Below are positions 7,003 to 62,968 of a DNA stretch of 64,000 bases, in pieces. How positions within the stretch are numbered: position 1 is the stretch's first letter; each line of letters starts with the position of its first letter. The stretch covers positions 8,530-72,529 of the forward strand of contig DYIT01000001.1 of assembly GCA_020723505.1 (NCBI GenBank), read 5' to 3'. The notes under the pieces were generated by a model. That model did not search any database, was not told the origin of the DNA, and worked only from the letters and a program-made list of their open reading frames with translations. The position numbers were made by a program, and so were the translations under genes. Source of the stretch: Candidatus Kuenenia stuttgartensis (GTDB lineage Bacteria > Planctomycetota > JAKEIC01 > DYIT01).

Positions 7003-8955
7003 TTACAGGTACATCAGCCTGTAGAATTCGAGTACGACGCCTTTCGCGGGTTCGACGGTATCTGTGTCGAACATGAACCCGGCGCCGCGCACCTGATCGT
7101 AGGCTTCCCTCGTGAGAAGTATCTCCTTGCCGGAGGCAACGTCCTCGCCGAGCTTGGAGGCCTTGTTCACCTGGTCGCCGAACGCGTCGCCCTCTATCCG
7201 CGTGATTCTGCCGAAACCGATGCCCGTGCATATCTGGATGGTCGAGTCCGGCTCCGCGACCGCGTTGTAGCCGTCGAGCGCCGCGTTCATGGCTATCGCC
7301 GCGTCCACCGCCTGCTTCGCCGAAGGGAAGACCGCGAACAGGTTGTCCACGTCCTGCTTGAGCAGCTCGCCCCTGTGGCGCTCTATCACGGGCCTCAAAA
7401 GCTCCGCATGCATCTGGAGGATGCTTAGCGAATGTATGATGCCCTTGCTGGCCGTGATTCTCGTGAACCCCACCGAATCCGTCATCATCACCGCGGCGTC
7501 CGTCTCGAACCGCTCGCGAATCTGCGCGTCTATCTTCTCCTTCTCCTCGGGTTTCTCGAGCCTCCGCCTGAGGAGTTCCGCGAATTCGCCGCTGATCCGG
7601 CCGGGCCCCCTGTGGACCGGCTTCACCAGGGCCGAAATCCTCGATGGGGCATCGACCGAGGCGACCGATTCCTGCACGCCGCTGCGCATGTCCTTGATCT
7701 TCACCTGACCGGCGGCAATTTCATCGGGCCCGACGACGGCGGTTATCGGTATGTTCTTCTTCGCCGCATGCTTGAATTGCTTCGCCAGTTTGCCCGCCTC
7801 GCCCACGTAGGTCTCCGCCCTGAGCCCTGCCTTCCTCATGGCGTCCGCGAGCCTGAGCGACTGCGGGGCGAGATCGTCGGAAAAGACCGTCACCAGGACG
7901 TCGGCGGCGGGGCTCGCGGCGGCGTCCTTCTTCTCTGCGAGGGCGATGATTATCCTCTCGAGCCCGAATGCGAGCCCCACGGCCGGATAGCCTTCCCCGC
8001 CGCCGAGCTGGCCCACGAGCCTGTCGTAGCGGCCGCCTCCCCCCAGCGATCCGATTTTCGGCTCAGTGACCTTTATCTCGAATATCGGACCCGTGTAATA
8101 GTCCAGCCCGCGCACCATTCCGGGCGAGAAGCGGAGCCAGCCCGGCTCGCCGGTCGCGGCTTCGGCCAGCGCGTATATCCTCCTCAGCTCCCCGAAGCCC
8201 TCCTTGCCCGCGGCCGAATTCCCGACGGCAGCCTCCACCCGCCTCATGTCGTCCGCGGGGTCCCCGGTGGTCACGAGCGCGTCCAGCAGCCCTCCGGCTG
8301 CGGCCTCGGCCATTCCAGGGCCGCCGTCGCGGGAGACGAGAATCTCGCCGACCGCCCCGGGGCCCATCTTCTCGAGCTTGTCCACGGCCTTGCATGCAGC
8401 GACCCTCGACTCGGGCGGAACGCCGAAGGCTTCCATAAGGCCCGTGATAATCTTCCTGTTGTTCACCTCGACGCAGAATTCCGCGAAGCCGAGCTTCTTC
8501 ATGGCCGAGCGGACGATGAGCAGGATTTCCGCGTCGGCTGACATCTCCGGACTGCCGATTATGTCGATGTCGCACTGGCAGAACTCGCGGAACCTCCCGG
8601 CCTGGGGGTTGTCGGCGCGCCATACCGGCTGAATCTGGTACCGCTTGAACGGCATGGGCAGGTTCTTGCCGTGCATGGCCATCACCCTGCTCAGGGGCAC
8701 GGTCAGGTCGTACCTGAGGCCGAGCGTGCGTCCGTCGCGGTAGGCGAGAGGGAAGATGAGCTTGTCCTCCTCGCCGCCGCTCTTGCCCGTCAGCACGTCC
8801 ATGAACTCGAAGGCGGGGGTCTCAATCGGCTCGAAGCCGAACGACTCGAAGGTCTCCCTGAGGATTGAGATTGCTCGATTGCGGACCGCCATGTCCGCCG
8901 GCAGGAAATCCCTCGTGCCCTTGAAGATTCTCGTCTCTATGCCGCCGCTCATCAT
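7003..8955 (-). CDS. hisS: Histidyl-tRNA synthetase fused to a C-terminal class III adenylate/guanylate cyclase domain
   Basis: N-terminal about 420 aa: KGTRDFLP, class II motif 2 FKRYQIQPVWRADNPQAGRFREFCQCDIDIIG and motif 3 GGGGRYDRL, plus an anticodon-binding-like region. C-terminal about 190 aa: AAVMMTDSVGFT, KQDVDNLFAVF and TGIGFGRITRIEGDAFGDQVNKASKLGE, which match class III cyclase core motifs. Start set at the MMSGGIETRIFKGTRD pair (ATG 8955); the longer ORF to 9225 would overlap pdaD. Confidence 0.8.
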   Translation of the reverse strand: MMSGGIETRIFKGTRDFLPADMAVRNRAISILRETFESFGFEPIETPAFEFMDVLTGKSGGEEDKLIFPLAYRDGRTLGLRYDLTVPLSRVMAMHGKNLPMPFKRYQIQPVWRADNPQAGRFREFCQCDIDIIGSPEMSADAEILLIVRSAMKKLGFAEFCVEVNNRKIITGLMEAFGVPPESRVAACKAVDKLEKMGPGAVGEILVSRDGGPGMAEAAAGGLLDALVTTGDPADDMRRVEAAVGNSAAGKEGFGELRRIYALAEAATGEPGWLRFSPGMVRGLDYYTGPIFEIKVTEPKIGSLGGGGRYDRLVGQLGGGEGYPAVGLAFGLERIIIALAEKKDAAASPAADVLVTVFSDDLAPQSLRLADAMRKAGLRAETYVGEAGKLAKQFKHAAKKNIPITAVVGPDEIAAGQVKIKDMRSGVQESVASVDAPSRISALVKPVHRGPGRISGEFAELLRRRLEKPEEKEKIDAQIRERFETDAAVMMTDSVGFTRITASKGIIHSLSILQMHAELLRPVIERHRGELLKQDVDNLFAVFPSAKQAVDAAIAMNAALDGYNAVAEPDSTIQICTGIGFGRITRIEGDAFGDQVNKASKLGEDVASGKEILLTREAYDQVRGAGFMFDTDTVEPAKGVVLEFYRLMYL

Positions 8956-9077
8956 GCGCTCCGCAAAACCCCGGCTGGATTCTATCCTCCGCGTGCCGGG
9001 TGTCAAGCGAGCCGCCTGATGCCCAGGGCTGAAGAGTCCGGAACCTTCGCCCCCGGGTCCGCCCGGGAGATTTTCCA

Positions 9078-9106
9078 TTGACCCAGGGATTTTATGCATT
9101 ATATAT
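9078..9106 (+). promoter_or_regulatory. Candidate sigma-70 promoter for pdaD-speB
   Basis: TTGACC (9078-9083), a 16-17 nt spacer, then a TATATA/ATATAT box at 9100-9106, about 60 nt upstream of the pdaD ATG. Sequence pattern only. Confidence 0.4.
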
Positions 9107-9168
9107 ATGATCGCTCCCGACGGCGGCTTCGGACGTCGGTGCTCTCCGGTCATTTTGGGGGATTCTCG

Positions 9169-9723
9169 ATGGAGGATCAGTTCGTATTCAACAAGATATT
9201 TCTCACCAAGGGTTGGGGGGTCCACAAGGAGAAGCTGTCGAGCTTCGAGATGGCCCTCAGGAAGGCTGAAATCGCGCGGTTCAATCTCGTCAAGGTGTCG
9301 TCAATCATTCCTCCAGGCTGCAAAATCATCTCCAAGGCCAAGGGCCTTTCGCAGCTGAAGTCGGGCCAGATTCTCTACCTGGTCCTCGCGCGCGCCGAGA
9401 CAAACGAGCCCAACAGGATGGTATCGGCGTCCATCGGCATGGCCATTCCGCGCGATCCCACGAAGTACGGATACATCTCCGAACACCACAGCTTCGGGCA
9501 GACGGCGAAGGAAGTGGGCGACTACTCCGAGGACCTCGCGGCCACGATGCTCGCCTCGACTCTCGGAATCCAGTTCGACCTGGACAAGGGATGGGACTGG
9601 AGGCGCGAGCAGTTCAAGATGGGCGGCAACATCGTCAAGACGCAGAACCTGACGCAGGTCGCCCGTGGGGACATGAAGCACAACTGGACGACGGTGATAT
9701 CGGCCGCCGTGTTCGTGCCGTAA
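9169..9723 (+). CDS. pdaD: Pyruvoyl-dependent arginine decarboxylase
   Basis: MEDQFVFNKIFLTKGWG...FNLVKVSSIIPPGC contains the Ser-Ser self-cleavage site context. Size (184 aa) and the ending VISAAVFVP are typical of PdaD. Confidence 0.85.
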   Translation: MEDQFVFNKIFLTKGWGVHKEKLSSFEMALRKAEIARFNLVKVSSIIPPGCKIISKAKGLSQLKSGQILYLVLARAETNEPNRMVSASIGMAIPRDPTKYGYISEHHSFGQTAKEVGDYSEDLAATMLASTLGIQFDLDKGWDWRREQFKMGGNIVKTQNLTQVARGDMKHNWTTVISAAVFVP

Positions 9724-10592
9724 TGAGGAGCGGGAGATTCATCTACGAGACCGCCGCGGAGATGCCCCGGCCGCCGCGCGTGCGCGTCATCCCCGTTCCC
9801 ATGGAAGAGACGGTGTCGTATCGCCCGGGCGCGGCCAGGGCTCCGGCCGCGATTCTCAACGCCTCGATGCAGGTGGAATACTACGACGCCTTTCTGGGGA
9901 CAGAGCCCTGCCTCGAATTCGGAATCGAGACCTCCGCCCCGGTCCTCGGGCGCGGGCCTTCGGACTGGGTCCGCAAGACCGCGGCCGAGTGCAGGAAGGC
10001 CCTGCTTGCCGGCAGGATTCCGGCGTTCATCGGCGGCGAGCACACTCTCACGGCCGGAGCGGTGCATGCGGCCATGGACGTCCATCCGGACCTTATCATC
10101 GTGCAGATTGACGCCCACGCCGATTTGAGGGACTCGTACAGGGGCAACCCGCTGTCCCACGCGTGCGCGATGCGCCGCTGCAGGGACGAGGGCGCTGAAA
10201 TCGTCTCGTTCGGCGTCAGGGCCTACTGCGCCGAGGAGGCGGAATACGTCAAAGGGGACAGGGGAATAACCGCCGTCCCAGTGGAAGCCCTTTCGCGCGA
10301 CGGGTCATGGAAGAAGCTCTTGGCGTCACGGCTCAAGGGGAGGCCCGCATATCTGACCGTGGACCTGGACGGGCTGGATCCTTCCGTCGTTCCGGCCGTG
10401 GGCACGCCCGTTCCGGGCGGGCTGTCGTGGCGGGAAGCGAAGTCGGTAATCGACACGGTCTTCGCCTCGTGCAGGCAGGTTGCCGGGCTTGACATGGTTG
10501 AACTCGCTCCCGGGAAGGACGACCAGACGTCCGAATTCGCGGCGGCGCAGCTCCTCTACTACGCCATCTCGAGGGCTGCCGGCCGCAGGTGA
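9723..10592 (+). CDS. speB: Agmatinase (ureohydrolase family)
   Basis: ATG 9723 overlaps the pdaD TAA by 1 nt. Ureohydrolase metal-binding motifs are present: GGEHTLT, VQIDAHADLRD, LTVDLDGLDPS. Confidence 0.85.
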   Translation: MRSGRFIYETAAEMPRPPRVRVIPVPMEETVSYRPGAARAPAAILNASMQVEYYDAFLGTEPCLEFGIETSAPVLGRGPSDWVRKTAAECRKALLAGRIPAFIGGEHTLTAGAVHAAMDVHPDLIIVQIDAHADLRDSYRGNPLSHACAMRRCRDEGAEIVSFGVRAYCAEEAEYVKGDRGITAVPVEALSRDGSWKKLLASRLKGRPAYLTVDLDGLDPSVVPAVGTPVPGGLSWREAKSVIDTVFASCRQVAGLDMVELAPGKDDQTSEFAAAQLLYYAISRAAGRR

Positions 10593-10672
10593 GGGGGAGA
10601 GCGGGGAATACATATGCGGTATCGGCGAAGTGCCGGAAGGCCTCACGGCACATTCGCCTCCCGCAGGATTGG

Positions 10673-12706
10673 TTACTGCAGCCTTCCGCGGATCTCGTCG
10701 ACGAGGTCCTTTTCGACCGGGCAGCCCTTCTCGCCGGCAATGCGCACGTGAATCCATGCCATGTTGGCGTCCCCGGCCTTGAAATAGGCCCTGGCGATTG
10801 CGTTGTGCACCGGTCCCGAATCGGGATTTTCCGCCGCCCCGGTCTTCAGCATCCCGAGCGCCTGCTCCGTCTTCCCCGCTTCCATGAGGGCCATGGAGTA
10901 GTCGAACAGCGTCTCGTCCGAGGGGAATCGTTTGTACAGGTCCTCGAGCACGGCCTCGGCCTCGTCGACGGTCCCCGCGGAAATGAGCATGAAGGCGTAG
11001 TCGCGCCGTATTTTCAGGACGTCCGGGCTCGAGTCCGAGGCCAGCTTCATGTGCTCGAGGGCCTGCTTCCGGTCCCCGGCGGCGGAGAGGGCCAGGGCGA
11101 GCCTGTATCTCAGAGCCGGGTCCTCAGGCCTGAGACCTACCGCCCGCCCGACGAATTCGACGGCAGCGGCGGGGTTCCCGGAATCCAGCAGGAGCGAACC
11201 CCGGTCCGCCAGGAGGAACGGATCATCGCGCGAAGCCGCAAGCCCCCTTTCGAGGACGAGGAGCGCGTCCTGAATCCTCCCCAGCGACTTGAGCAGCGAG
11301 GCGAGCTTCCTCGCCATCTCGGCGTTCTCCGGCATAATCTCCAGGATGGCGCCGAGCGCCTCAAGCGCGGCCTCGTTCTTCCCGGCCATGACCAGCACGT
11401 CGGCGAGCCTCATCCGAAGCTGCATGAGGCCCGGCTTGAGCGCGATGGTCTTGCTGATTACCTCCTCGGCCAGGTTGAACTCGCCCCTGTCCACGTGGAC
11501 TTCCGCAAGCAGCCTCCTCGCGTCCACGTGCTCCGGGTTGCCGGAAATGACCTCGACGAGGAGCTTCCTGGCTTCCTCGGTCTGCCCGAGCCTGTGGTGC
11601 GCCCTCGCGAGGTTGAAGAGTATCTCCTCGGACCGGAACCCGTGGCCCATCGCCGTGGACAGGATTCCCTCCGCCGCCTTTGGCCTGTCAAGGTCCACGT
11701 AGAGCTTGCCGAGCCTCACGTAGGGCAGCTCCATACCCGGTTCCGCGTCAATGCACGTGAGATAGATGCCGACCGCGGCGTGCAGGTCCCCCACGCCTTC
11801 GAGCGCCTTGGCCAGGTTGAATCTCGCGGGCATGAAGTCCGGCTTGCTGGAGAGGACCTCCACGAAGGCCGTCTTCGCCTCGTCGAACCGCTCGAGTTCA
11901 AGGAGGGCCGTCCCGGCGTTGTTCTCGGCGTCAAGGAACCCGGGTGACGACTTGAGGGCTCTCCGGAAGAACTCGAGCGCCTTGCCCGGTCTTCCCGTCT
12001 TCATGAAGACCATGCCTATGGCGTTCCTGGCCTCGGCGTTCTCAGGCGAGAGCTCGAGAGAGGTGAAGAGGCTCGACTCCGCGGCGCCGAGGTCGCCCCT
12101 GTAGTACTCCTCGAGGCCCTTGTTGTACGCGGCCTCGAACATGTCGGGTTTTATCCTGAACGCCTCGGCGAAGCTCTTGAGCGCCCCTTCGGAATCCCCC
12201 ATGGCCCTCATGGCCACGCCGAGGTTGACCCTGCTCACGGCGCTCTGGGGGCTCAAGTCCAGGGCCTTCTCGAAGCTCGCCGAGGCGCCGAACGCGTCGC
12301 CGGCCGCGAGCATGGCGAGCCCCTCGTCGTTGTACTTCTTGACGCCGGCGAGGCTGTACTGGAACGAGAGCTGCTGGTAGTATCGCGCCTCCTCGTTGCG
12401 GCCGAGGGCGCGCAGGCTGACGGCAGTGAGGTAGTAGACCTTTCCGTTCTCGGGATTCTGCACGCGGGCGGAATCGAGAACGGCAATCGCCTTCTCGTGA
12501 GCGCTCACCTTCTGGAGCGCCTGCGCATGCAGGAGCATGGCCTCCTGGTTCGATGAATCGAGCTCGAGAGCGCGGAGGGCGAGCTTCCCGGCTTCGTCGA
12601 CCCTTCCCACCGCCACGTACCTCTTCGCGAGTTCGACGTAGGGCTCCGGCGCCGACGGATTCGTCTTTATGAGCTCGGCCAGGTCCTTGAGGGCGAGTTT
12701 TTCCAT
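10673..12706 (-). CDS. Tetratricopeptide (TPR) repeat protein
   Basis: 677-aa ORF made of repeated 34-residue A/L/Y/G-pattern units (for example AEARNAIGMVFMKTGRPGKALEFFRRALKSSP) from end to end. Confidence 0.8.
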   Translation of the reverse strand: MEKLALKDLAELIKTNPSAPEPYVELAKRYVAVGRVDEAGKLALRALELDSSNQEAMLLHAQALQKVSAHEKAIAVLDSARVQNPENGKVYYLTAVSLRALGRNEEARYYQQLSFQYSLAGVKKYNDEGLAMLAAGDAFGASASFEKALDLSPQSAVSRVNLGVAMRAMGDSEGALKSFAEAFRIKPDMFEAAYNKGLEEYYRGDLGAAESSLFTSLELSPENAEARNAIGMVFMKTGRPGKALEFFRRALKSSPGFLDAENNAGTALLELERFDEAKTAFVEVLSSKPDFMPARFNLAKALEGVGDLHAAVGIYLTCIDAEPGMELPYVRLGKLYVDLDRPKAAEGILSTAMGHGFRSEEILFNLARAHHRLGQTEEARKLLVEVISGNPEHVDARRLLAEVHVDRGEFNLAEEVISKTIALKPGLMQLRMRLADVLVMAGKNEAALEALGAILEIMPENAEMARKLASLLKSLGRIQDALLVLERGLAASRDDPFLLADRGSLLLDSGNPAAAVEFVGRAVGLRPEDPALRYRLALALSAAGDRKQALEHMKLASDSSPDVLKIRRDYAFMLISAGTVDEAEAVLEDLYKRFPSDETLFDYSMALMEAGKTEQALGMLKTGAAENPDSGPVHNAIARAYFKAGDANMAWIHVRIAGEKGCPVEKDLVDEIRGRLQ

Positions 12707-51374: not shown

Positions 51375-52488
51375 ATGAACATGGCTATAAGCCTCTCTGA
51401 AACGGAACAGTCCCTGAAGGACATCGGCGAAAGGCTCGATCTCCTCAGGGACTCGCTTTGACTACGGGGCCAACCGCAGGAAATTTACCGAGATCGAGAC
51501 CAGAATGGCGGCGCCCGGTTTCTGGGACAAGCCCGAGACTGCCAAGACGACCGTAGCCGAGTTCAAGGTTCTAAGGGACAGAGTCCGCCCCTTCGAGGAA
51601 ATCGAGGGCTCGTACCGCAGCCTTTCCGAGCTTCTCGAACTCTGCCGCAAGGAAGCCGACCAGGGCATCCTCGACGAAGTGGCGGCCGAGACCAGGGCGC
51701 TCAAATCGAAGCTCGAGAAGCTCGAGCTGGCTTCGATGCTCGGAAAGGAGACTGACAGGCTCAACTGCTACATGAGCATCCACGCCGGCGCGGGCGGCAC
51801 GGACTCGAGCGATTGGGCGGCCATGCTCATGAGGATGTACGTCAAGTGGATGGACCGCCGCGGGTACACCGCGTCGATAATCGATTACGCGGCCAACGAG
51901 GAAGCCGGCATAAAGAGGGTGGTCATCAAGGTCAACGGCCCATGGGCATACGGTTTTCTGCGATCGGAAATCGGTGTGCACAGGCTCGTGCGGATTTCGC
52001 CGTTCGATTTCAACCAGAGGCGGCACACGTCGTTCGCCTCTGTCGACCTGCTGCCGCAGTTCGAGGACGAGGAGGAAATCGAGATTAGCGAGAGCGAGAT
52101 TAAGATGGACACTTACCGATCCTCCGGCGCCGGCGGGCAGCACGTCAACGTCACGGACTCGGCGGTCAGAATCACGCACATCCCGACCGGAATCATCGTC
52201 CAGTGCCAGAACGAGAGGTCCCAGCACCGGAACAGGGCCGAGGCCTTGTCGATGCTGAAGGCCAAGCTCATGAGGCTCAAGGAAATCGATCGAGAAAGCG
52301 AGCTCAAGGCCATGTACAGCGAGAAGGGCGAAATCGCGTGGGGCAACCAGATTAGGTCGTACGTCCTGCATCCGTACACCCTGGTCAAGGACCACAGGAC
52401 TGATCTGGAGACAGGCAACGTCCAGGCGGTCCTGGACGGCGACCTGGATGAGTTCATGAAGGCGTTCCTCATGCTCAAGAAGCCCTGA
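51375..52488 (+). CDS. prfB: Peptide chain release factor 2, requires programmed +1 frameshift (join 51375..51458, 51460..52488)
   Basis: Frame 0 encodes M(N)MAISLSETEQSLKDIGERLDLLRDSL then TGA at 51459. The +1 frame continues DYGANRRKFTEIETRMAAPGFWD... and contains SPF (RISPFD) and GGQ (SGAGGQHVN). Confidence 0.95.
51447..51462 (+). promoter_or_regulatory. prfB +1 recoding site
   Basis: AGGGAC TCG CTT TGA C: an internal SD-like AGGGA sits 3 nt before the slippery CTT-TGA-C, the same geometry as the classical prfB site. Confidence 0.9.
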
Positions 52489-58741: not shown

Positions 58742-58840
58742 TTGTTTTCGCGCGGAGGGTTCGACTACGAGCGCGGAAACGTCCCGGCGCGCGAATCAGG
58801 TTCCGCGCCGGATTCCCGATTTGCCGGAATGACGCTGATG

Positions 58841-58872
58841 AAACAGGGGCGGTTCGCGAACCGCCCCTGTTT
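58841..58872. terminator. Bidirectional hairpin terminator between convergent operons
   Basis: Perfect 32-nt palindrome AAACAGGGGCGGTTCG/CGAACCGCCCCTGTTT, with A/T residues on both flanks. Confidence 0.65.
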
Positions 58873-58947
58873 CATTGACTCCCCCCCCCAGGGGTGAATA
58901 ATCATGTGAATCAGCAATCAGATCATGTTAATCAGCGTCGTAGTCCC

Positions 58948-60000
58948 TTATCCCATCGGCCCCTTGACCGGGTATCCCCTGAAGAACCTGCCGAGCGCCT
59001 CGGGATTGGGAGCGGCCTTGAACATGTCGCCGTTCACCTTCATCACCGGCTCGCCGTCGAAGACCACGGCTTCCACGAGCCTGCGCGCGTCCTTCCACGC
59101 GACGAAGCCTTCCATGGCCGCGAGCACGATTTCTCCGGCGAGCTTGGACCTGCCGTCGGACATCTCGATCTTCCTCTTCGCCGGGTCCTTTTCGAGCGCG
59201 TCGAAGTAGATGATCTTCGGGTATCCTTCAACGCCGGCGGTCAGCCTGAACGCGTTGTTGAGCCCCTTGAGCAGGGCGATGAGCCCGTCGATTCTGTCGA
59301 TGTCTCCGCGCTTCTCCTTAATCGTCCTCTGGTCGGCGAACTGGATGTAGGCGAGATCGCAGGTATCGCGGCCGGATCCCTGGGCCAGGAATATCTCGTC
59401 CACCTCCTCGCACACGGGAGTACGCTCGGTGATGTAGAATATCTTGAATCCTTCCCAGGGGTCGAAGCCCGCCAGGACCTGGGAATTCCCGAATATGCCC
59501 TTGACGTCGTCCGGCATGCCGTCGAAGGTCATGTACTTGAGCGCCTGCTCGACCGCCTTGTCGTCCGAAATCTGGACCTTCTGCCCGTCCTTCATGTACC
59601 AGCCGCGCATCAGGTCCGTCGCGTCGAAGTTGTAGCGGCCCAGCAGGAAGTCGTCCACATGGCGCTGCTTCACCGAGGAAATCACGTCGAACGCGACGTT
59701 CGCGAGGTCCTCGACGGTCTTGAACTTCTCGGGCGGCTTGCCGAGGTTCTTCTTCTCGGCGGCGTAGAGCCCGGTGATTTCCTTCTCCACGCGGTCCGTG
59801 AACTCGTCGCCTATGCTCGACGTGCCGGTCTGGCCCATGAACATGACGATGCCCTGCTCGCGCGTGATTTCCTCGTTCACGACCGACCTGATTTTTTCGG
59901 GCGTGTGGAAGATCATCCATTCCGGGTTCCAGTACCTAGCCTCGTCGCAGAGGCAGAGCCCTGAATGCCAGTTGAGCCTCAATGCGTTGATGGAAGTCAT
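58948..60000 (-). CDS. Proteasome-beta-like Ntn hydrolase, oversized, catalytic residues present (putative active subunit)
   Basis: M-TSINALRLNWHSGLCLCDEARYW...PEKI aligns by eye with proteasome beta TTxVGxxxxDGVVLAADxR...K (Thr1/Asp17/Lys33 equivalents at Thr2, Asp19, Lys36). FLAQGSGRD matches the GSG loop. The ATG overlaps the stop of the upstream paralogue (ATGA). Confidence 0.6.
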   Translation of the reverse strand: MTSINALRLNWHSGLCLCDEARYWNPEWMIFHTPEKIRSVVNEEITREQGIVMFMGQTGTSSIGDEFTDRVEKEITGLYAAEKKNLGKPPEKFKTVEDLANVAFDVISSVKQRHVDDFLLGRYNFDATDLMRGWYMKDGQKVQISDDKAVEQALKYMTFDGMPDDVKGIFGNSQVLAGFDPWEGFKIFYITERTPVCEEVDEIFLAQGSGRDTCDLAYIQFADQRTIKEKRGDIDRIDGLIALLKGLNNAFRLTAGVEGYPKIIYFDALEKDPAKRKIEMSDGRSKLAGEIVLAAMEGFVAWKDARRLVEAVVFDGEPVMKVNGDMFKAAPNPEALGRFFRGYPVKGPMG

Positions 60001-61103
60001 CTGCGGCCTCCTTTCCTCTGCGCGCCGCTCCTGTTCCCGGGCTTTCCGGAGCCCGCCGCGAGCAATTCGGGGATTTCCCTGAGCTTGTAGCCCCTGAGCA
60101 CGAGCATGAGCCCGTCGGGACCTCCGGCCTTGTCGACGAGCTTCTTTTCCACGGTCTTGAAATCCACCCTGCCGTAGACCAGGGAATCCAGGAGGTCTAT
60201 CGCCTGGTCCTTCCCGAGGAGTCCGGCGAGGTGGGCCTTGATGATTTCGCCGGCCAGCCTCGCGGAGCCGTCCACTACTTCCCTGAACCTGTCCTCGCGC
60301 TTCTTTCCCCTGCGATCGAAAAGGACCATGTTCATATTGCCGCCGACTTCCTTGAAGTGGTCCTTTGCGATGAGCGCAGAGGATAGGAGCTCGAACAGCC
60401 CCTCAGCGGGCTCGTACCCGGCCTTGCGCATCATCAGCGTGCGGGTCCTGAAATCACGGCCGAGAGAGAGGCCGGATGCGTACTTGCCCGGGCCGATGCA
60501 TTCGAATCCCTCATGCACGTACCCGCAGATGTACTTGTCCGGCGAGAGGTGGTACGAGGTCATGCCCACCTGCTGGTCGAACCCGAACACAACGGCCTTG
60601 GAGTCGAAGATGAACTTGAGCAGCATGTCCTTGCTGTCGCCGGAGGATACGGCCCTCAGCGCGTCCATGACCTTGCCCTGCTTTATCGGGAAGGTTTCGC
60701 CCTTCCGCGAGAGCGAGGAGCGGTTCACATCCTCGGTATCCACGCCGTAGAAGAACCTGAGCTTCTGGTCTATGCGCCTGCGGATCTGCTTCCTGAGCTC
60801 GTCGAATGCCATGCGGGCGATTTCGCGGACGGTCGCCGGCGGCTCGGCCTCCTGCTTCTCGGCCTGCGCCATCCGGGCGGCGATTGCCTTGCGGGTCTCC
60901 CTGACGACCTCGCGGTGGAAGGACGGGTAGCCTGATCCGCCGTAGACCACCTCCATCCCGCAGGCCTGCGCGGTCTTCCCGTCGAGCAGGGAATGGAGGC
61001 TGTCGCAGCAGAGCCTCCTGCGGAAGAAGACGTTCCAGAACTCTTCGTCCGCAACGCCTGCGCCGCAGTCGTCGTTGAACCTGAGAAAGTTGACGAGGGC
61101 CAT
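59997..61103 (-). CDS. Paralogue of the proteasome-beta-like protein lacking the nucleophile (putative non-catalytic partner subunit)
   Basis: M-ALVNFLRFNDDCGAGVADEEFWN has the same N-terminal pattern but Ala2 replaces Thr and Ser replaces the Lys equivalent. CIGPGKYAS aligns with the GSG loop. It shares a C-terminal DGxxxLAGEI motif with the downstream gene. Confidence 0.55.
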   Translation of the reverse strand: MALVNFLRFNDDCGAGVADEEFWNVFFRRRLCCDSLHSLLDGKTAQACGMEVVYGGSGYPSFHREVVRETRKAIAARMAQAEKQEAEPPATVREIARMAFDELRKQIRRRIDQKLRFFYGVDTEDVNRSSLSRKGETFPIKQGKVMDALRAVSSGDSKDMLLKFIFDSKAVVFGFDQQVGMTSYHLSPDKYICGYVHEGFECIGPGKYASGLSLGRDFRTRTLMMRKAGYEPAEGLFELLSSALIAKDHFKEVGGNMNMVLFDRRGKKREDRFREVVDGSARLAGEIIKAHLAGLLGKDQAIDLLDSLVYGRVDFKTVEKKLVDKAGGPDGLMLVLRGYKLREIPELLAAGSGKPGNRSGAQRKGGRR

Positions 61104-61180
61104 CGTAGTCAGTCCTCAACGCCATACTGGGGCGGGAAGCCCGCGCTCGCGCCCGGCGCTTTCCGGCCCCGAACTGCGGA

Positions 61181-61209
61181 ATGCTAGACGGAAAGGAAAG
61201 GGATGTCAA
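61181..61209 (-). promoter_or_regulatory. Candidate sigma-70 promoter for the proteasome-like gene pair
   Basis: The minus strand reads TTGACA-N17-TAGCAT, about 75 nt upstream of ATG 61103. GAGGA RBS lies 9 nt before the ATG. Confidence 0.45.
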
Positions 61210-61290: not shown

Positions 61291-61977
61291 TCATTTCCCC
61301 AGTACTGCCTCGATGACCGACGGGGGTATGCTGATGTCCGCCACGACGATCTTCCCGCAGAGCGCGGGACCGTCGGCCAGCGCGAAACCGGCCTTCTCCA
61401 CTCCGAAGGTGACGGTTACCGACGCTCGCACCGCCTCGCCCTCGGTCTTTCCGGTGTCGCAGTCGAGCCCCGAGGGGATGTCGACGGCCAGGACCTTCCT
61501 CCCGGACCTGTTGAGAATCGAAATAGCCGATGCCACGGGCTCTCTCGGCCTTCCGGACGAACCGGTCCCGAGCATGGCATCCACGGCCACCGAGCAGGAC
61601 GTGAGGGCGGCGGAGAGCCTGTCCATGAAATCCCGGTCCGACAAGTCCACGACGCGCAGGCCCATCTTCACGACGGCGGCCAGGTTGGCGCCCGCGTCCG
61701 ACCTGCGGTCCGAATCCGCCGCCCTGCCGAGGAAGAAGACCACCGCGGGAATGCCCCGGTTGTGCAGCCGGCGGGCCACGACGAATCCGTCGCCTCCGTT
61801 GTTGCCTGGCCCGGCGACGACGACCACGGGGAGCGGGTCGGGACCGCGCATCCTGAGCGCTTCCTCGGCGACCGCCGCGCCCGCGTTCTCCATGAGGACG
61901 GCGCCGGGAATGCCGATTTCCTCGATTGTGATTCTGTCCATTTCCCGCATCTGCATGCGGCTTGCGGCGATGCGCAT
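61291..61977 (-). CDS. nnrE: NAD(P)H-hydrate epimerase (stand-alone YjeF N-terminal domain)
   Basis: VVVVAGPGNNGGDGFVVARRL and VDAMLGTG...LAVDIPSGLDCDTG are YjeF_N signatures. There is no fused C-terminal dehydratase domain. Start (ATG 61977) is uncertain. Confidence 0.8.
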   Translation of the reverse strand: MRIAASRMQMREMDRITIEEIGIPGAVLMENAGAAVAEEALRMRGPDPLPVVVVAGPGNNGGDGFVVARRLHNRGIPAVVFFLGRAADSDRRSDAGANLAAVVKMGLRVVDLSDRDFMDRLSAALTSCSVAVDAMLGTGSSGRPREPVASAISILNRSGRKVLAVDIPSGLDCDTGKTEGEAVRASVTVTFGVEKAGFALADGPALCGKIVVADISIPPSVIEAVLGK

Positions 61978-62212
61978 ATTCCGCCTTTCAAGCAACCGGC
62001 GAGGGGGGATCAGGGTACCGGGGAGCCTTCTGGGAACACCTCGCCGGCTCTTGTCGCGGGTTTCGCAAGCGCCAGCGAAACCAGGGGCTCGATTGGACTC
62101 GTACGGCGCCACGCTCCAGTCATTGGTTGTTGGAAGTTAAGATTTCATTGGGAGTTGGGATTTGGACGTTGGGATTTTCCTACTGCTTATCTCATGACTT
62201 TGCGCAGTAGGA

Positions 62213-62968
62213 TTATTCCTCCGCCTTTCCTTCGCTGCCCACGGACTTGGAGGGCGGAACCCCGACGTAGAACTCGAAGATCGCCCTGCCAATCCTGAAC
62301 TTGTCTCCATGCTGGAGCCGTTCGTCGTCCATCTCCTTTTCGTTGAGCTTGGTGATGCGGCGCGGGGCGAGGTTAATCAGGCGGAAGCCGTTATTGTCGC
62401 GTACGAGCGCGGCATGCTTGGGATAGATGAAGAATCCGCCCACGTTGAAATCGCAGGACACGGCCTTCCCGAAGAAGGTGATTGTCTTGACCACGGGCTG
62501 GTTCTGCTTCTTCCCCGAGGGCGCGAGATATGTGATGTATGCCTTGAGCTTGCTGGCGCGCTCCCTCTGCATCATCTCCATCTCCCTCGCGTCCACCGCG
62601 AGGGTGAGGTCGGGGCTCGCGCCGGGCTGGGCCAGGGCCGCGGGGGGCGCCGCACGCTTCTGGGTCTGCGGCTTGGCGCCCAGGCCCAAATCCACCTCGA
62701 AGGAGAACTTCCCGATGCTGAATTCGTCGCCGGTGTTGAGGTTGTACGCGTCTATCTTCTTCCCGTTCGCGAAGGTCCCGTTGTTCGAGCCCAGGTCGTG
62801 GAGGATGTAGACTCCGGCCTTCCTCTCGATTTGCGCATGCTCGCGCGACACTCCGAGATTGTCGAGGACCACGTCGCAGGTCGTGTTCCTGCCGATGACA
62901 ATCAAGTCCTTGTCGAGCTGGTATTTGTCGACGAGGTTTCCCGAAAATCTGAGCGTCAGCTTAATCAT
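62213..62968 (-). CDS. Double FHA-domain protein
   Basis: FHA 1 is IVIGRNTTCDVVLDNLGVSREHAQIE...LHDLGSNNGTFANGKKI...FSIGKFSF. A second, more divergent FHA-like domain is FFGKAVSCDFNV...HAALV...FRIGRAIFEF. Confidence 0.8.
   Translation of the reverse strand: MIKLTLRFSGNLVDKYQLDKDLIVIGRNTTCDVVLDNLGVSREHAQIERKAGVYILHDLGSNNGTFANGKKIDAYNLNTGDEFSIGKFSFEVDLGLGAKPQTQKRAAPPAALAQPGASPDLTLAVDAREMEMMQRERASKLKAYITYLAPSGKKQNQPVVKTITFFGKAVSCDFNVGGFFIYPKHAALVRDNNGFRLINLAPRRITKLNEKEMDDERLQHGDKFRIGRAIFEFYVGVPPSKSVGSEGKAEE

Follow-up and report, generated by a model that had tools for sequence, protein, structure and literature searches.

Overlapping genes for two proteasome-like paralogues, one with and one without the predicted threonine nucleophile, in uncultured bacteria

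Can the division of a proteasome-type enzyme into active and inactive subunits have occurred more than once? The origin of the two-tier alpha/beta design of the proteasome is a long-standing question, and to our knowledge a single instance of the transition has been available so far. The question is raised by a stretch of 64,000 nucleotides (nt) from Candidatus Kuenenia stuttgartensis (assembly GCA_020723505.1, contig DYIT01000001.1, positions 8,530 to 72,529), here called the window, in which two overlapping genes encode proteasome-like paralogues. The product of gene B has a complete set of predicted active-site residues and the product of gene A lacks the nucleophile (Table 1). We propose, at a probability of roughly two in three, that the two proteins form an obligate hetero-oligomeric N-terminal-threonine hydrolase, in which B is the catalytic subunit and A its non-catalytic partner.

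The active site was compared in an alignment of 386 non-redundant full-length sequences, obtained from databases and from 80 fetched loci, which comprised 173 B-type proteins, 46 archaeal proteins encoded by solo genes, and 167 A-type proteins. The column of the nucleophile (Thr1 in proteasome numbering) held Thr in 171/171 B-type and 45/45 archaeal sequences; A-type sequences had Ala (114), Ser (25), Gly (21), Thr (3) or Pro (1) at this position. Lys33 was found in 173/173 B-type and 46 archaeal proteins and in only 3 of the 167 A-type proteins, where Asn (83), Ser (26), His (18) and other residues took its place. Other columns were retained in all three groups, including Asp17 (171/171 B-type, 46 archaeal, 163 A-type), the oxyanion-hole residue Gly47 (173/173, 46 and 164), Gly128 (173/173, 46 and 167) and Gly130 (170 of 173, 45 and 165). 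Ser129 was present in 172 of 173 B-type and 44 archaeal sequences and was variable in the A-type. The protein encoded by gene A in the window follows this pattern, with Ala2 in place of Thr, Asp19-Glu20 kept, S35 in the Lys33 column, and GPGK in place of the Gly-Ser-Gly (GSG) loop. The original prediction, made from the letters of the window, had listed the two open reading frames (ORFs), their ATGA overlap, these motifs, and a DGxxxLAGEI block common to A and B, and every item checks out in the sequence. Its assignment of the Thr, Asp, Lys and GSG residues is borne out by columns that are near-invariant in the B-type proteins, and with this it passes the conservation check that it had set for itself; what it said of the absence of nucleophile and Lys from A extends to the A-type proteins as a group.

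The N-termini complement this pattern. All 77 unique B genes at the loci (77/77) begin with Met-Thr and encode no propeptide, which agrees with the statement that propeptides are limited to beta subunits and HslV (PMC8665760). Given the absence of a propeptide, the nucleophile of B would be exposed by methionine aminopeptidase, and we infer removal of the initiator Met from the known specificity of that enzyme. Position 2 of A-type proteins is nearly always occupied by a small residue, which would also permit Met removal and suggests that a free N-terminus may still matter to the structure of A.

Placement of the two proteins in a family depends on structure prediction and on relatives. Neither window protein matched any Pfam or NCBIfam model, including that of the Proteasome family (PF00227) even at E <= 10, and neither had a meaningful match in PADLOC or PHROGs. 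A defence-system or phage origin of the pair was rejected on the outcome of these four comparisons. When 50,697 phage and 72,556 plasmid records were searched with tblastn no relative came to light, and a single-sequence search of Protein Data Bank (PDB) sequences with the window proteins found nothing. Full-length homologues were recovered by the dozen (84 clusters in the case of B, 66 in that of A); they are all 'hypothetical', without a Pfam domain, and derived from metagenomes or metagenome-assembled genomes. AlphaFold2 models built from the family alignments were confident, with a predicted local distance difference test score (pLDDT) of 91.9 and a predicted template modelling score (pTM) of 0.88 for B, and values of 89.7 and 0.86 for A. 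When the models were compared with the PDB by Foldseek at E <= 0.001, B matched 962 proteasome-type chains and A 1025, and the 50 best matches of each were all 20S alpha, 20S beta or Anbu chains (best E = 2e-9; TM-score 0.7-0.8 normalised to the target, for the 50 best per protein). The solved structures nearest to them are 20S subunits from actinobacteria, archaea and eukaryotes, and Anbu. Both predicted models contain the four-layer alpha-beta-beta-alpha core of N-terminal nucleophile (Ntn) hydrolases, with strands S1-S10 and helices H1-H4, and the order of secondary-structure elements is identical in the two. These models uphold the beta-like fold expected by the original prediction.

Sequence profiles link the family to known members at a distance. 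Family profiles compared with PDB sequences gave marginal matches (E about 0.1), to alpha5 by both profiles and to beta2/beta6 by the B profile, which we used as register checks only; they were in the correct register over the segment 'AGyD..G..lf....GSG'. Six of 43 superfamily members matched PF00227; the best of them, the archaeal solo protein P0243, was the one above the curated cut-off, with 23.9 bits against 22.4. Overall, the models and these relatives place A and B in the proteasome-like branch of the Ntn hydrolases, far from the PF00227 core.

The predicted structures also define what is particular to this family. In B, 172 residues separate Lys36 from Gly208, compared with 95 between Lys33 and Gly128 of proteasome beta, so that about 77 residues are extra, close to the 80 or so of the original prediction. 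The model of B has a short helix after S3 (residues 43-49), a long H1 (61-86), a long H2 (96-123), an insertion of 45 residues at 124-170, where the proteasome has its pore loop, that folds as a helix, a beta-hairpin and two helices, and a small extra helix (227-230) between H3 (211-223) and H4 (236-253). The same post-H2 insertion elements occur in the model of A. Both proteins start at strand S1 directly after Met, with no N-terminal extension, and the long C-terminal addition noted before the models existed takes the form of four helices. The product of gene A ends in a basic tail that is predicted to be disordered.

The two proteins are clearly paralogues, as had been supposed from their common C-terminal block: their BLASTP alignment (E = 3e-29) covers them over the full length, spanning 346 columns at 25% identity, and contains no more than 4 gaps. 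Structural alignments gave each of them only 9-15% identity to any alpha or beta chain, and in Foldseek each matched alpha and beta chains equally. Orthology of A to alpha and of B to beta was therefore rejected, given the strength of the match between A and B and the insertions and C-terminal motif that they have in common. Since the duplication appears to have happened inside the A/B family, the resemblance to the alpha/beta design would be convergent in logic. The comparison with 20S alpha/beta logic that the original prediction drew consequently holds as an analogy and fails as a statement of orthology, A and B being each other's closest relatives.

The taxonomic distribution of the pair revealed that its arrangement is strongly conserved. 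A pattern scan with one genome per species identified 75 loci in 38 genomes of uncultured bacteria, hosted by CSSED10-310, Vulcanimicrobiota, Wallbacteria, Schekmanbacteria, Muiribacteriota and Sumerlaeota, together with genomes that bear the labels Planctomycetota, Synergistia, Bacillota and Gemmatimonadota; in many genomes there are 2-4 copies. Gene A preceded gene B in 70 of 83 arrangements. The exceptions were eleven single genes (eight B and three A), several of which lie at contig edges or are parted from their partner, one A-B-B triple, and one split A gene. In the triple (locus L013, 5107-8343), two B genes in tandem come after A, and the second of them overlaps the first by 4 bases. 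The split A gene (locus L004, 8918-9999, in a contig of 4.29 Mb) consists of ORFs of 220 and 140 amino acids (aa) with a 4-base overlap, and reflects either a genuine frameshift or a fault in the assembly. Among 64 unique pairs, the genes overlap by 4 bases in 34 and by 1 base in 4; most of the others are separated by no more than 33 nt, and in some pairs the genes lie 30-143 nt apart without overlap. This conserved order and overlap supports the coupled, stoichiometric expression that had been proposed from the window.

The members of the pair also evolve together. In a neighbour-joining tree, the A-type, B-type and archaeal solo proteins formed essentially pure clades (F1 of 0.99, 0.997 and 0.98, respectively), and the A-A and B-B distances of partners were correlated with r = 0.91 (highest value among 500 permutations, 0.11). 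These two patterns indicate that the pair is inherited and duplicated as a unit, as far as sequences can tell. Locus L005, for example, holds two complete A-B pairs within 12 kb. Over a common set of 21 locus pairs, the median ratio of non-synonymous to synonymous substitution rates (dN/dS) was 0.081 for A and 0.071 for B, and A gained non-synonymous changes only 1.2 times faster than B. By this measure A is a functional gene under purifying selection about as strong as that on B, and the possibility that it is a decaying duplicate was rejected on its dN/dS of 0.08. An ORF of 356 aa on the plus strand (58894..59964), antisense to B, was dismissed as a shadow ORF of GC-rich DNA because the gene on the minus strand has conserved homologues and a low dN/dS.

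The single genes reveal an asymmetry between the partners. Three single B genes (loci L029, L034 and L037) lie well inside contigs, in genomes that also carry A-B pairs, and make up a small clade of B genes that are true orphans. A convergent gene for a GNAT acetyltransferase directly follows two of them (L029 and L037), and the upstream gene of one (L029, the only one inspected by hand) encodes an HExxH protein unrelated to A. No A gene without B was seen where this could be tested; B, on the other hand, includes a small solo clade. This is what would be expected if A were a dependent accessory subunit.

Relatives outside the pair extend the picture. A profile of A and B searched against 1.84 billion representative proteins matched 378 clusters (at 50% identity) with E <= 0.001, of which 178 had E <= 1e-30. 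A broad search with an A, B and archaeal profile recovered, among the matches listed, known B-type members only and nothing new. A shorter class of about 305-327 aa comes from DPANN archaea (Woesearchaeota and unclassified archaea), and the archaeal genes are single in the two loci inspected. One archaeal solo homologue lies in divergent orientation beside grpE-dnaK-dnaJ (locus L082, 5140-6918), a proteostasis context observed once. In the archaeal proteins the catalytic set is intact and both the post-H2 insertion and the C-terminal extension are present, with several small deletions relative to B; these Thr-bearing solo relatives look like the unduplicated state. A C-terminal motif, L-R-G-Y-(K/P), is common to A (residues 336-340 in the window), B (340-343) and the archaeal proteins. 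The Tyr of this motif is followed by 1-2 residues in most archaeal proteins, by a median of 6 in B and by a median of 24 in A. Its penultimate or near-penultimate position in those archaeal proteins brings to mind, as an analogy, the HbYX and GQYL tails with which proteasome activators dock.

Table 1. Coordinates of the gene pair, its sequence signals and neighbours in the window, and of selected pairs and single genes at other loci
Feature	Position	Strand	Remark
Gene A, 368-aa non-catalytic proteasome-like paralogue	59997..61103	minus	product starts MALVNFLRFNDDCGAGVADEEFWN
Gene B, 350-aa catalytic proteasome-like subunit (predicted), complete Ntn active-site set	58948..60000	minus	product starts MTSINALRLNWHSGLCLCDEARYWNPEWMIFHTPEKI
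ATGA overlap, A stop TGA / B start ATG	59997..60000	minus	last A is the first base of the B Thr codon
Sigma-70-like promoter candidate, TTGACA + 17-nt spacer + TAGCAT	61181..61209	minus	consensus match 10/12
Shine-Dalgarno-like GAGGA, 9 nt before gene A ATG	61113..61117	minus	read from sequence
Strong Shine-Dalgarno AAGGAGG for B, within gene A 3' end, 6 nt before B ATG	60007..60013	minus
Perfect 15-bp GC-rich hairpin between convergent genes, after B	58840..58873	none	z = -5.6
B Thr2 codon, predicted N-terminal nucleophile after initiator Met removal	59995..59997	minus
B Asp19 codon, proteasome Asp17 equivalent	59944..59946	minus
B Lys36 codon, proteasome Lys33 equivalent	59893..59895	minus
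B Gly59 codon, oxyanion-hole Gly47 equivalent	59824..59826	minus
B Gly208-Ser209-Gly210 codons (FLAQGSGRD), proteasome Gly128-Ser129-Gly130 equivalent	59371..59379	minus
B family-specific insertion after H2, residues 124-170, proteasome pore-loop position	59491..59631	minus	from model
B C-terminal four-helix extension (283-340), then L-R-G-Y motif (R341, G342, Y343)	58951..59154	minus
YjeF_N gene (NAD(P)HX epimerase-type)	61291-62112	minus	directly upstream of gene A
Gene for protein with two FHA domains	62213-62968	minus	upstream of pair, same strand
Large weakly VWA-like protein, 795 aa	52537-54924	plus	converges on pair
Large weakly VWA-like protein, 1263 aa	54950-58741	plus	converges on pair
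Orphan B gene, locus L029 (the three orphans: 344-347 aa)	8001-9035		hidden Markov model scan: no adjoining A
Orphan B gene, locus L034	8001-9044		hidden Markov model scan: no adjoining A
Orphan B gene, locus L037	3364-4398		hidden Markov model scan: no adjoining A
Complete A-B pair, locus L005 (same contig region as L064)	8895-11047		first of two within 12 kb
Complete A-B pair, locus L005	18395-20517		second of two within 12 kb

Signals around the genes in the window are consistent with their joint expression. The promoter candidate, identified by consensus match alone, is placed in the 187 bp that separate gene A from the YjeF_N gene upstream of it. The Shine-Dalgarno region of gene A (reverse complement of 61104-61125) reads ATGGCGTTGAGGACTGACTACG, and that of gene B (reverse complement of 60001-60025) reads GCGCGCAGAGGAAAGGAGGCCGCAG. 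The plus strand at 59995-60000 is agtcat, giving ATG ACT on the minus strand at the start of B. None of 200 shuffled sequences folded as well as the hairpin beyond B (0/200); it has no U-tract on either strand, and a terminator scan gave no call there. It may act as a transcript end or as a stabiliser for the A-B unit. With a promoter candidate, two Shine-Dalgarno sequences, the ATGA overlap and the hairpin, the pair looks like a self-contained bicistronic unit.

The wider surroundings of the pair differ between lineages. The window neighbours (the FHA, YjeF_N and VWA-like genes) recur at no other locus among the roughly 80 compared. The N-terminal VWA matches of the two large convergent proteins are weak and sub-threshold, and the C-terminal half of the larger one is long, of low complexity, and rich in Glu, Ala and Pro. 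Elsewhere, lineage-specific neighbours included an M23 peptidase gene after an infB-rbfA-truB-rpsO-pnp cluster; ispA, dxs and recN with an SBP_5 solute-binding gene; PmbA/TldD; and a gene for a bVLRF1 release-factor-like protein. A bacterial A-B pair placed directly after a bVLRF1 (Vms1-like release factor) gene was seen once (locus L083, 5276-8161), a ribosome-rescue context. At 18 other loci, Ser/Thr kinase genes are found no more than a few kb from the pair. A phospho-signalling link suggested by these kinases and the FHA protein of the window was set aside, kinases being abundant in these genomes and the loci non-independent. Genes for an M20 peptidase and a circularly permuted ATP-grasp protein were found in one CSSED10-310 lineage only (loci L005/L064 and L055), where they flank the second pair of L005 on the same strand. 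This recalls the Anbu operon, which reportedly contains, typically, ATP-grasp, alpha-E and transglutaminase genes, and as a general feature of the pair it was rejected on its restriction to one lineage. Finally, on the plus strand of the window, a CTTTGAC at 51456-51462 lies just upstream of an ORF (51505-52488) that encodes RF2 without its N-terminus; we take it to be the well-known +1 site at which prfB undergoes programmed frameshifting.

How would such a pair work? We propose that Thr2 of B, freed by methionine aminopeptidase, would serve as N-terminal nucleophile together with Asp19, Lys36, an oxyanion hole at Gly59 and Gly-Ser-Gly 208-210, as in proteasome beta. A would assemble with B as a structural, regulatory or substrate-binding partner, and translational coupling would yield the two in a 1:1 ratio. 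The split between A and B would have followed a duplication inside the family, independent of that between 20S alpha and beta. Most likely, the enzyme would cleave peptide or amide bonds without ATP, its substrates being peptides, unfolded proteins or a single specific protein.

Several observations weigh against this proposal. The absence of a PF00227 match in the window proteins means that their placement depends on predicted structure and relatives. In our reading of the alignment, no conserved residue clearly corresponds to Asp166 or Ser169 of proteasome beta. The Ser found at position 2 of 25 of the 167 A-type proteins could in principle be a nucleophile, and the orphan genes show that B can occur without an adjoining A. 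The conserved-neighbour analysis of about 80 loci disclosed no universal partner and no substrate or other conserved partner gene, and no AAA+ unfoldase was present among the genes annotated or scanned around them. The 2021 survey of the superfamily likewise reported no AAA+ unfoldase for its new families (PMC8665760). The 45-residue insertion occupies the pore-loop site, and insertions comparable to it could prevent ring assembly or form a cap (PMC8665760). By analogy, the insertion in A and B could prevent ring assembly, and because it sits at that site a heterodimer or open assembly is as plausible as a barrel. That uncultured bacterial phyla carry an independently evolved two-subunit proteasome-type particle, with dead and active copies in mixed or stacked rings, is an extension of our proposal that we regard as doubtful.

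Other explanations of the same data must be weighed. The heteromer could be a non-degradative enzyme, a sequence-specific transpeptidase, ligase or amidase that acts on one defined protein or metabolite recognised by A and the insertions. We consider this quite unlikely. It draws strength from connectase, for which PMC7980362 and PMC8665760 describe a Thr1/Asp17/Lys33 site capable of specific ligation; an unfoldase gene unseen near any pair would suit it, the pore-loop-site insertion and C-terminal helical domain could block barrel formation, and 2-4 diverged pairs per genome are what pair-specific specificity would produce. However, connectase has no H1 and H2 and carries a two-helix lid where A and B have a short helix, their H1 and H2 being long, and no candidate substrate gene is conserved beside the pair. 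Very improbable, in our judgement, is that A and B form no complex at all, A being a pseudoenzyme with a separate role that adjoins B through shared regulation. Orphan B genes and the pairs without overlap at spacings of 30-143 nt would fit such a separation, but across phyla the genes stay in the same order and close together (overlapping in 38 of 64 pairs), the partners co-diverge and duplicate as a unit, A was never seen without B where testable, and A keeps the insertions, C-terminal extension and L-R-G-Y motif of B. Furthermore, it is general knowledge that paralogous subunits of this fold assemble together in every known homologue except connectase. We retain the hetero-oligomeric hydrolase as the preferred reading.

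A further explanation concerns novelty rather than mechanism. Fuchs, Alva and Lupas (2021) described 22 proteasome-like subfamilies of proteins not yet characterised, PHI and PMI-1 to PMI-6 among them, with an insertion after H1/H2 in PHI and also in PMI-3 and PMI-4, one between H3 and H4 in PMI-2 to PMI-6, catalytic residues kept, C-termini commonly divergent, and no conserved gene context or AAA+ partner (PMC8665760). The B-type and archaeal solo proteins could already be among these subfamilies, PMI-3, PMI-4 or PHI being the likeliest, so that the pairing alone would be new; we lean against this possibility. Four members (OGL42185.1, OGL43578.1, OGL48122.1 and OQA18071.1) were public before the August 2020 database of the survey. 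A long insertion after H1/H2 is found in PMI, PHI and the A/B family alike, and the short helix between H3 and H4 recalls PMI-2 to PMI-6, divergent C-termini being frequent throughout these families, although this is a resemblance by description only and common to several families. PHI is distributed in PVC bacteria, other bacteria and archaea, which resembles what we see here (PMC8665760). On the other side, B is unlikely to belong to PHI, since PHI is described as tightly tied to proteasome clusters by BLAST, close to the proteasome core, and the window proteins miss PF00227 at E <= 10. It is also unlikely to belong to PMI-4 on grounds of size and distribution, as that subfamily has 411 clusters at 70% identity including phages, compared with 378 at 50% here and no phage or plasmid match. 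The representatives of PHI, PMI-1, -2, -5 and -6 are RefSeq WP_ proteins, and named members here are all metagenome-assembled. The representative accessions of the survey, among them OGZ26396.1, HDY66466.1 and WP_012956871.1, turned up in no other paper. Moreover, a survey that selected on the active site would leave out the A-type.

If A and B do form an obligate hydrolase, the locus would provide a second, independent instance of a split into active and inactive subunits, accompanied by a series that runs from before the split to after it: Thr-bearing genes that stand alone in DPANN archaea, B genes without a partner in some bacteria, and strictly coupled pairs duplicated two to four times per genome. 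Because this series is available, the evolution of an obligate pseudoenzyme partner becomes directly testable by co-expressing two small genes. A two-subunit particle, were it to exist, would be a natural replay of the 20S alpha/beta split and small enough to reconstitute. The analysis also names about 400 sequence clusters missed by Pfam and NCBIfam models. From phyla without cultured members it brings forward a possible threonine hydrolase that would need no ATP or, if connectase is a guide, a specific ligase that might be useful. The interest for proteasome evolution and pseudoenzyme biology is tempered by the great diversity of the superfamily that the 2021 survey had already uncovered.

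Comparison with known systems delimits the pair further. The 20S proteasome of Archaea and Actinobacteria (prcA/prcB) shares with it the Ntn fold (Foldseek E about 1e-9), a paralogue with Thr1, Asp17, Lys33, Gly47 and Gly-Ser-Gly beside one that is catalytically dead (here as judged from sequence), and genes that adjoin and are co-inherited. In contrast, A and B are closest to each other and point to an independent duplication; A lacks the N-terminal H0 gate extension and B a propeptide, which the active 20S subunit removes autocatalytically; and both are about 120-150 residues longer, owing to the post-H2 insertion and the four-helix C-terminal extension. No Pup, ARC/Mpa or PAN-type partner was found nearby. 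The 20S particle is built of four stacked heptameric rings, and the system described here is known from genes and monomer models.

Anbu is a single gene whose product forms homo-oligomers. It resembles the pair in being bacterial, in having Thr right after Met with no propeptide, in its C-terminal helical elaboration and in the absence of an AAA+ partner, and its structures 5nyg, 5nyj and 5nyw are among the top structural matches of A and B. Anbu is classified in the Pfam Proteasome family (PMC8665760). Our system differs in having two genes, in showing no PF00227 match, and in having ATP-grasp genes nearby in one lineage only. HslV has about 175 aa and is encoded beside hslU. It is a compact, insertion-free subunit that works with the AAA+ ATPase HslU (PMC8665760), and membership of A and B (368 and 350 aa) was rejected on their length, their insertions, and the lack of any AAA+ gene among those annotated or scanned around the approximately 80 loci. 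Connectase is larger than a beta subunit and carries extra elements. Its superfamily and catalytic residues are those of B, and it illustrates that the fold is capable of specific, non-degradative chemistry. It is monomeric, and its lid lies between S3 and S4 (PMC8665760); A and B are encoded as a pair, and their models, with long H1 and H2 and a single short helix after S3, led us to reject membership.

The 2021 survey reports no operon, paralogue pairing, inactive paralogue, hetero-oligomer or gene co-occurrence, and its text contains neither 'operon' nor 'paralog' (0 occurrences; PMC8665760). Because its sequences were picked by active-site conservation (PMC8665760), A-type proteins would have been excluded. 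We found no later paper that describes a paired active and inactive bacterial proteasome homologue, and the pairing, its strict conservation, the co-divergence and the A family itself appear to be undescribed. The original view that this is not a described system stands to that extent, and in so far as Pfam, NCBIfam, PADLOC and PHROGs hold no match. The closest parallel in logic comes from an unrelated fold. ClpR is the inactive paralogue in a heteromeric Clp protease. ClpP/ClpR and ClpP1/ClpP2 are bacterial, self-compartmentalising serine proteases that work with AAA+ partners (ClpX, ClpC), of a kind not seen here, and their design is analogous to that proposed for A and B, combining a paralogue that is active with a second, jointly encoded, that is less so or inactive.

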